Source: Escherichia coli (GTDB lineage: Bacteria; Pseudomonadota; Gammaproteobacteria; Enterobacterales; Enterobacteriaceae). From it: 64,000 nucleotides of DNA. The notes under the pieces are model-generated. The model saw nothing but the letters and a program-made list of their open reading frames with translations, was not told the origin of the DNA and did not search any database. Position numbers and translations under genes: made by a program. This document shows positions 27,124 through 27,506 of the stretch, piece by piece (positions within the stretch are counted from its first letter, which is position 1; each line of letters starts with the position of its first letter). The DNA is taken from NCBI RefSeq assembly GCF_041248615.1, contig NZ_CP158426.1, one strand, 5' to 3'.

Positions 27124-27299
27124 TCAGGACGTCAAATAAATAACAACTGTAATTATTCTCTCCAAATTAACAATCTCTGTATACATACTCAGGCGTGTTC
27201 ACGCATACAACACGCCTTTCTGATATTTAATTGTTTACAGAAATATTGCCGAATAAAAATATAAACCATAGTCTTAAAAAAATAATAATTCCACTATAG

Positions 27300-27395
27300 C
27301 TATCCCAGAACAATCAGTACAAATAATAAAAGACATATCACAGCAACACTCCACACTGACAGCGCAAAAATAAATGCCGCCTTTGTTATCTTCAT
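27300..27395 (-). CDS. Candidate 31-aa hydrophobic peptide (MKITKAAFIFALSVWSVAVICLLLFVLIVLG) in AT-rich spacer
   Basis: Short ORF not in the >=60 aa track; single predicted TM helix; weak AGGA/GG Shine-Dalgarno 10-14 nt upstream; no homolog recognised. Confidence 0.25.
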   Translation of the reverse strand: MKITKAAFIFALSVWSVAVICLLLFVLIVLG

Positions 27396-27506
27396 ATACA
27401 AGCAACCTGTCCTGATAATCACCAACTCATGTTTTATTCTTAACCATTCGTCACAAATACAACAAAAAATAACAGCAGCAGCACCGATATCACAATATAA
27501 GATACA

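Follow-up and report, generated by a model that had tools for sequence, protein, structure and literature searches.

Downstream of a helix-turn-helix (HTH) regulator gene, on a mobile adhesin cassette of Escherichia coli, lie two small ORFs in tandem, ORF-A of 25 aa and ORF-B of 31 aa, each with the hydrophobicity of a transmembrane (TM) helix. Our preferred reading, held with roughly even confidence, is that they encode two unannotated single-pass membrane peptides that would be co-transcribed with the regulator as distal, partly coupled cistrons of the cassette. The preliminary description of this DNA had proposed a short ORF for a peptide with one TM helix in an AT-rich spacer of an islet and had likened it to a type I toxin; the peptide ORF and its setting stand, whereas the toxin label found no support. 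The window, the whole stretch of 64,000 nucleotides (64 kb) that was analyzed, is 100% identical to E. coli isolate NRZ14408 (NZ_LT599825).

Spacer, regulator and adhesin genes

The region at 27124-27506 is 383 nt long with a GC content of 0.329 (0.33-0.35 in sliding windows), and its minus strand is rich in T and G. The biggest ORF inside it codes for 43 aa, in agreement with its description as an AT-rich spacer (GC 32.9%) without a large ORF. Its placement in an islet adjoining a prophage end was likewise recovered, with the order prfC, DinI-like gene, spacer, HTH gene, YadA-anchor remnant, invertase pseudogene and P2-like tail genes. The features of the locus are as follows.

osmY and prfC, minus strand: core genome genes
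26875..27123, plus strand: DinI-like gene (PF06183, E = 2.3e-19), convergent with the cassette
27191..27217: perfect 9-bp hairpin AGGCGTGTT / AACACGCCT, then TTTCTGATATTT on the plus strand
27285..27299: 3' boundary of the cassette, where homology with other contexts fades 12-15 nt past the ORF-B stop
27300..27395, minus strand: ORF-B, 31 aa, MKITKAAFIFALSVWSVAVICLLLFVLIVLG; ATG at 27395-27393, TAG at 27302-27300
27406..27413, minus strand: candidate Shine-Dalgarno (SD) sequence of ORF-B, AGGACAGG, 10 nt 5' of the ATG
27440..27517, minus strand: ORF-A, 25 aa, MLNNVSYIVISVLLLLFFVVFVTNG; about 45 nt upstream of ORF-B on the same strand and not flagged in the preliminary description
27507..27962, minus strand: regulator gene, 151 aa, with a sigma-70 region-4 / LuxR-type HTH at residues 87-130 (PF08281, E = 2.4e-7)
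27523..27528, minus strand: SD sequence of ORF-A, GGGGGA, 5 nt 5' of its GTG and within the end of the HTH gene
28024..28401, minus strand: C-terminal remnant, 125 aa, of a YadA-like trimeric autotransporter adhesin (PF03895 YadA_anchor, E = 1.7e-17), the first gene of the cassette
beyond the YadA-like remnant: a frameshifted invertase gene, then P2-like tail-fibre and baseplate genes

The spacer is composite. Its part from 27124 to about 27285 goes with the DinI-like gene and was found with it in 22 genomes at 34 places; the rest, from about 27285 onward, goes with the HTH cassette and is present in 183 genomes. We assign the DinI-like gene to a separate module that reaches to about 27285. 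Two perfect CTGT-N8-ACAG boxes lie upstream of this gene, and it is for this reason probably under SOS control. The hairpin at 27191-27217 is likely its terminator and, in the DinI-like context, is the sole candidate to stop minus-strand transcripts after ORF-B; the terminator scan gave it no terminator score. Where the islet lies downstream, which is the commoner case, the coding strand has a GC hairpin, GTGACCGTCCTGACGGTCAC, and then TTTAAAG about 85 nt past ORF-B.

The regulator is named 'sigma factor-like helix-turn-helix DNA-binding protein' by PGAP. It matches sigma-70 region 4 only, with no match to region 2, and the sigma models score it at 15-21 bits against cut-offs of 43-222 bits. 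No divergent homologue of the regulator was found in 5.8 billion clusters, in 1.84 billion representatives or, using tblastn, in the INPHARED phages. One contig in IMG/VR has the identical arrangement of regulator and small ORFs. A PHROG family of about 156 positions gave a marginal match (E = 7e-4); as this family aligns from the N-terminus of the regulator, 151 aa would seem to be the native length of the protein rather than the result of truncation. An AlphaFold2 model of the regulator made without an alignment had a mean pLDDT of 37, too low for use.

The adhesin remnant is annotated by PGAP as 'incomplete; missing N-terminus' and matches PDB 2lme. Full-length adhesins, of 362-470 aa, are present at other loci, and carriers of an intact cassette include APEC IMT5155 and FDAARGOS_1286. 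With the adhesin gene truncated, the copy of the cassette in the window may be decaying. A PDB sequence search with the full-length adhesin of a related locus (L018) returned the YadA membrane anchor only, and no EibD chain was among its matches.

Distribution and 3' boundary of the cassette

We surveyed 5426 complete E. coli genomes. The sequence from about 27285 to 27530 is present in 183 of them, at 293 places and with up to 7 copies in a genome, and all copies are at least 95% identical. A query of 27440-27962, covering ORF-A and the HTH gene, was matched at 292 places, and the genomes were the same 183. The regulator gene always lies immediately upstream of the small ORFs and on the same strand. 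No K-12 strain is among the carrier records listed, and the spacer DNA had no match in phage records. Many of the carrier genomes listed are from poultry isolates.

Three downstream contexts were found. In one, at the ends of lambdoid or P2-like prophages, the cassette is followed by the DinI-like gene; in another, by a chromosomal islet that carries an MliC-type lysozyme-inhibitor gene; the last is a third junction. The first of these, which is that of the window, has sequence in common with the other two for no more than about 15 nt past the ORF-B stop codon, whereas the islet and the third context are alike for about 28 nt. The break seen at query position 165 in the genome comparison corresponds to the 3' boundary of the cassette. 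Because the sequence shared between contexts stops just past ORF-B, the mobile unit is composed of the YadA-like adhesin gene, the HTH regulator gene, ORF-A and ORF-B, in that order, with ORF-B marking its 3' end.

Two small ORFs downstream of the regulator gene

ORF-B is the frame that had been flagged, and both its coordinates and its peptide were exactly reproduced. The peptide has two lysines near the N-terminus (K2 and K5) followed by 26 uncharged, mostly hydrophobic residues. The hydrophobicity of its best Kyte-Doolittle window, 3.0-3.2, is TM-like and, by the shuffles described below, goes beyond composition, consistent with the single TM helix first ascribed to it. The start of the ORF reads ATG-AAG. 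The duplex of its SD sequence with the 16S 3' end has a free energy of -5.1 kcal/mol, within the top 14% of ATGs in the window, and at a spacing of 10 nt the earlier description of this site as a weak SD is a fair one. Gene finders have called the identical 31-aa product on at least 179 public contigs. PGAP does not annotate it in any complete genome inspected.

Two other ways of reading the ORF-B peptide were dropped. By inspection it has no lipobox, with an I at position -1 before C21, which does not fit a lipoprotein. As a cleavable signal peptide, the SVA|V motif agrees with the -3/-1 rule; this reading was discarded because only 13 hydrophobic residues would follow the cleavage site.

ORF-A is on par with ORF-B in hydrophobicity, with a Kyte-Doolittle score of 2.99, and 17 of its 26 codons have a T at position 2. 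Its GTG start codon at 27517 is in the +1 frame relative to the HTH gene and 8 nt 5' of that gene's TAA stop codon. The SD sequence ahead of it, GGGGGA, includes a homopolymer of five Gs (G5). With a duplex energy of -8.6 kcal/mol, it is stronger than the SD sequences of both neighbours, at -6.9 for the HTH gene and -6.3 for the DinI-like gene. This overlap geometry is of a kind typical of translational coupling. Both ORFs have the properties expected of small membrane proteins: they are no longer than 50 aa, begin with a start codon behind a ribosome-binding site and have a single predicted TM helix.

To determine whether such ORFs could arise by chance, we compared them with dinucleotide-preserving shuffles, taking small ORFs to be those of 25-60 aa. 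The length of ORF-B is unremarkable, as spacer shuffles contain an ORF that starts with ATG and has 31 aa or more with P = 0.68. Its hydrophobicity is uncommon. For the spacer as a whole, a TM-like ORF had P = 0.02-0.03, and one of at least 25 aa was present in 2-7% of shuffles; in local shuffles of the T-rich stretch at 27288-27525 the probability of a TM-like ORF was 0.017. Two non-overlapping TM-like ORFs on one strand did not occur in any of 3000 shuffles of 27288-27525. Across the 64 kb window, only two of 496 small ORFs are TM-like, and these are ORF-A and ORF-B. Given this rarity in both the shuffles and the window, the region bears the imprint of coding for TM helices, be it present or past. 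The T-rich composition is better read as a consequence of TM coding than as its cause. T-richness could, all the same, be a cause as well as a consequence of hydrophobic codons.

We also examined variation among copies of the cassette, using 19 aligned sequences in which all copies are at least 95% identical. ORF-B is intact in 18 of the 19. The exception is strain SFE8, in which an IS3 insertion removes it, and ORF-B would thus be dispensable in at least one strain. Three of its 96 nt are variable, giving A6V, I28V and one synonymous change. Public data hold further alleles (F9L, I20M, L30M and one stop-loss extension), and hydrophobicity is kept in all five substitutions, A6V, F9L, I20M, I28V and L30M. 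ORF-A varies only by an in-frame 3-nt deletion of CTG within a CTG repeat. The linker between the two ORFs has one variable site in 44 nt, and the HTH gene has seven in 456 nt, mostly non-synonymous by hand classification. The 19 sequences gave no sign of purifying selection on ORF-B, with the limit that the sites are too few and that even the HTH gene varies mostly at non-synonymous positions.

No homolog had been recognised at the outset, and our searches, which returned near-identical E. coli sequences only, bear this out. The peptide queries were ORF-B (31 and 41 aa), a 68-aa read-through tail and a 72-aa fusion of ORF-A with ORF-B; none had a match in Pfam, NCBIfam, PHROGs or PADLOC. Divergent relatives of ORF-B, like those of the regulator, were not found in the 5.8 billion clusters or the 1.84 billion representatives. 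A full-text literature search for the peptide string of ORF-B returned no paper.

From these features we infer how the two ORFs might be transcribed, translated and inserted into the membrane. The terminator scan found no minus-strand terminator-like site between the HTH stop codon and ORF-B, and on this ground the small ORFs would be transcribed by read-through from the regulator gene. ORF-A would be translated through coupling to the regulator, as its GTG overlaps the stop region of the regulator gene and a strong SD sequence lies 5 nt upstream. ORF-B would initiate at its own ATG from the weaker SD sequence. Each product would be a single-pass inner-membrane peptide, with ORF-B oriented N-in by the positive-inside rule. 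As to function, they may be accessory membrane peptides of the cassette, as opposed to an autonomous toxin-antitoxin locus.

Alternative readings and related systems

A type I locus combines a small hydrophobic toxin with an antitoxin sRNA, which base-pairs with the mRNA of the toxin (PMC3919570). On the reading behind the 'type I toxin-like' label, ORF-B would be a membrane-depolarising toxin whose mRNA is silenced by an antisense sRNA from the same spacer. The first half of that definition was found, in a hydrophobic peptide of 31 aa (below 60) on a mobile element at a prophage end; the antitoxin sRNA was not. A hydrophobic small ORF is by itself not sufficient for a type I toxin call. Two possible sources of antisense RNA were seen. 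A promoter-like site on the opposite strand, TTCATA-17-GATAAT at 27391-27419, would give an RNA antisense to ORF-A and the 3' end of the HTH gene, and in the DinI-like context read-through from the DinI-like gene would run antisense to ORF-B. However, the former is the lone antisense promoter-like site and points away from ORF-B, with no overlap. Promoter-like sites overall are at the level of chance (4 found, 4.6 expected), with none on the ORF strand, and no plus-strand terminator-like site was found across the ORFs. RNA folding shows no excess over shuffles (z = -0.40 sense, +1.52 antisense). No Rfam family was matched at E <= 1 over 24000-31000, and no toxin family was matched in Pfam (E <= 1), NCBIfam (E <= 10) or PADLOC, a spurious 'Doppel' match (0.016) being all that Pfam returned in this test. 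ORF-B also does not have a charged C-terminal tail.

The position of the small ORFs argues in the same direction. They are directly downstream of the regulator gene, co-oriented and always linked with it, with no terminator between, so they are better taken as a distal cistron than as an autonomous toxin-antitoxin module. Known type I toxins, such as ZorO, TisB, Ibs, ShoB, Ldr, Hok and DinQ, resemble ORF-B in being small hydrophobic peptides, sometimes on prophages or islets. They differ from it in that ORF-B has no detectable antitoxin sRNA, promoter of its own, structured mRNA or family match, and follows a regulator gene as a cistron instead of forming a stand-alone locus. Taken together, a type I toxin is highly improbable here. 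Over 26600-28600 the scan gave the minus strand no promoter-like site at all, the HTH gene included, and is therefore insensitive. With promoter and terminator consensus scans of this sensitivity, the antitoxin result amounts to an absence of evidence, and for this reason the toxin reading is kept above zero.

Two further readings would deny the ORFs a function today. In one, the stretch is AT-rich 3' UTR or junction DNA of a horizontally acquired cassette and the ORFs are untranslated by-products of its T/G-rich composition. The ordinary length of the ORF (P = 0.68), the weak SD sequence of ORF-B and its loss to an insertion sequence in one strain are all consistent with this, as is the fact that the ORFs are unannotated in complete genomes, have no homologues and give no purifying-selection signal. 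We nonetheless find it doubtful. At the same local dinucleotide composition, tandem TM-like ORFs were seen in none of the 3000 shuffles, and the 64 kb contain no other such ORFs. ORF-A further combines a strong SD sequence with a start codon that overlaps the end of the regulator gene, and the boundary of the cassette falls just past the ORF-B stop codon.

In the other, ORF-A and ORF-B are frameshifted, no longer functional fragments of one longer ancestral membrane-protein gene, which would either have coded, downstream of the regulator, for a protein of about 72 aa with two TM helices or have supplied the regulator itself, at 173-220 aa, with a membrane anchor at its C-terminus. ORF-B shares its frame with the HTH gene, one TAA being all that separates them, and the 68 codons over which this frame stays open have P = 0.0037 in shuffles. 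A single indel within G5 would be enough to join the regulator to ORF-A as a 173-aa tail-anchored protein, a fusion that would be preceded by the K/R-rich linker RKGRFIKGR, and a second, in a T6 run, would join ORF-A to ORF-B. Across the 16-codon linker, only the ORF-B frame is open. However, of the 21 codons that the HTH frame has under ORF-A, 18 have T or C as their third base; since the NTN codons of ORF-A preclude stops there, the open HTH frame is mostly automatic, leaving a residual coincidence of P ~0.07. We accordingly set aside the placement of ORF-B in frame with the regulator and one TAA apart as a signal in its own right, it being mostly a by-product of those codons.

NCBI also holds fused proteins of 220 and 225 aa (P0005 and P0026), which join the HTH, ORF-A and ORF-B through G5 and T6 indels. 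These we took for homopolymer assembly errors rather than natural alleles, because P0026 has extra frameshifts and the two proteins do not share the site of the first indel. The 151-aa forms, with 309 member sequences, include no 173-aa or otherwise fused allele, and neither the 5.8 billion clusters nor the 1.84 billion representatives contained an intact homologue. The PHROG match suggests that about 156 aa is native for the regulator, and the linker of a fused protein, being net positive, would conflict with a cytoplasmic HTH. An origin of the two ORFs from a broken gene is thus unlikely.

Two partly coupled membrane peptides remain our preferred reading, and E. coli has precedents for them. 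Hemm, Storz and co-workers described small single-pass inner-membrane proteins including YohP, YncL, MgtS, AcrZ and MgrB. Such proteins are often encoded by distal or overlapping cistrons, and several modulate a larger membrane or regulatory protein. ORF-A and ORF-B are like them in size (25-31 aa), in having about one TM helix and a short polar or basic N-terminus, and in being un- or under-annotated. They differ in being unrelated in sequence, arranged in tandem, carried on a mobile adhesin cassette in place of the core genome, and, as products, putative. Should they be translated, they would add two to the unannotated small membrane proteins of E. coli, with as many as 7 copies in a genome, on a cassette that disseminates a YadA-like adhesin among prophages and islets. 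They would then be the first candidates for the means by which its orphan regulator is held in check at the membrane or receives signals there. Should they be untranslated, the region would be a composite 3' UTR only.

A more specific role can be drawn by analogy. ORF-A, perhaps together with ORF-B, could be a minimal membrane partner or anti-regulator that tethers the sigma region-4-type regulator at the inner membrane or releases it, linking expression of the adhesin to the state of the envelope. In an extreme variant, single-base slippage in the G5 and T6 runs would toggle the regulator between soluble and membrane-anchored forms. We consider such a role very unlikely. It would be a stripped-down analogue, on a mobile cassette, of the logic of operons for an ECF sigma factor and its membrane anti-sigma factor, such as rpoE-rseA or the sigY operon of Bacillus subtilis with its small membrane proteins. 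As in those operons, a gene with a sigma-70 region-4 HTH is followed by a gene for a single-pass membrane protein with the geometry of translational coupling. Unlike them, the regulator has no region 2, and only about 6 residues precede the TM helix of ORF-A, which makes it too short to hold an anti-sigma domain. The pair thus falls outside the ECF sigma/anti-sigma class, with gene order and coupling geometry the only similarities.

Expression of the Eib family of adhesins is known to respond to the environment and growth conditions. The cassette also resembles prophage-borne YadA-like or Eib-type cassettes, in that an adhesin with a YadA anchor is encoded in multiple copies at P2-like or lambdoid tail-fibre ends and in chromosomal islets. 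Two papers on Eib-type adhesins name no regulator for them and do not mention a downstream regulator or small ORFs (bioRxiv 10.64898/2025.12.25.695649; PMC4352079).

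The adhesin-regulator cassette and its orphan regulator

We found the cassette, a YadA-like adhesin gene followed by the HTH regulator gene and the TM-like small ORFs ORF-A (25 aa) and ORF-B (31 aa), in 183 of 5426 complete E. coli genomes, with up to seven copies per genome. Poultry or APEC isolates account for many of the carriers listed, and IS elements (IS1414, IS3, IS421 and ISKpn26) frequently interrupt the cassette. By its sequence matches, the 151-aa sigma-70 region-4 HTH regulator (27507-27962) is an orphan. Its matches are confined to E. coli, bar one record labelled Salmonella, and a search of 1.84 billion representative proteins gave no homologue with less than about 88% identity, barring marginal HTH-only matches. 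The AlphaFold2 model of the regulator, made without an alignment, has a pLDDT of 37.

Four other cassette loci (L008, L012, L014 and L015) have a conserved 49-aa ORF called about 25-100 nt upstream of a full-length YadA-like gene. It has no Pfam match, is absent from the window, and may be a further unannotated small gene of the cassette. On the 3' side of the cassette lies an element, ATTCTGTGTAAATGCCTTTTCT…GTGACCGTC-loop-GACGGTCAC, whose orientation differs by genome (L003/L008 versus L010/L016, compared 30-120 nt after ORF-B). The occurrence of both orientations suggests that the site is a hotspot for recombination or inversion, or that the genomes share a phage terminator module.

Probably artefactual fusions of the regulator with the small ORFs

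Two homopolymers lie in this region:
27523-27528, minus strand, G5 run
27463-27468, minus strand, T6 run

In NCBI, 'sigma factor-like' proteins of 220 aa (MDC9149451.1) and 225 aa are fusions of the regulator, ORF-A and ORF-B. They arise via single-base indels within or near these runs and are probably long-read assembly errors. They nevertheless show the three frames to be one or two indels short of a single ORF.

Neighbouring DinI-like and tail-fibre genes

Upstream of the DinI-like gene (26875-27123, plus strand) are two perfect CTGT-N8-ACAG palindromes resembling LexA boxes:
26816-26831, first palindrome
26844-26859, second palindrome, called by the scan as a minus-strand 'terminator'

The pair overlaps and follows a TTGACA -35 hexamer at 26810, an arrangement that implies SOS control of the DinI-like gene.

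The prophage tail-fibre region comprises:
28479-29595, frameshifted Hin/Pin-type invertase pseudogene with the adjoining tail-fibre C-terminal segment
29122-29595, plus strand, that short segment, in opposite orientation beside the pseudogene
30216-31853, minus strand, main tail-fibre gene

The short segment is similar to the C-terminus of the main gene, and together with the pseudogene it resembles the decayed remains of an inversion switch for the tail fibre. Several tandem repeats, each about 60-70 aa long and nearly identical to one another, are present in the main tail-fibre protein (…TAKGTVQLSSA.NSTSETLAATPKAVKAAYDLAAGKAP.SHTHPWSQITGVPAASL…).
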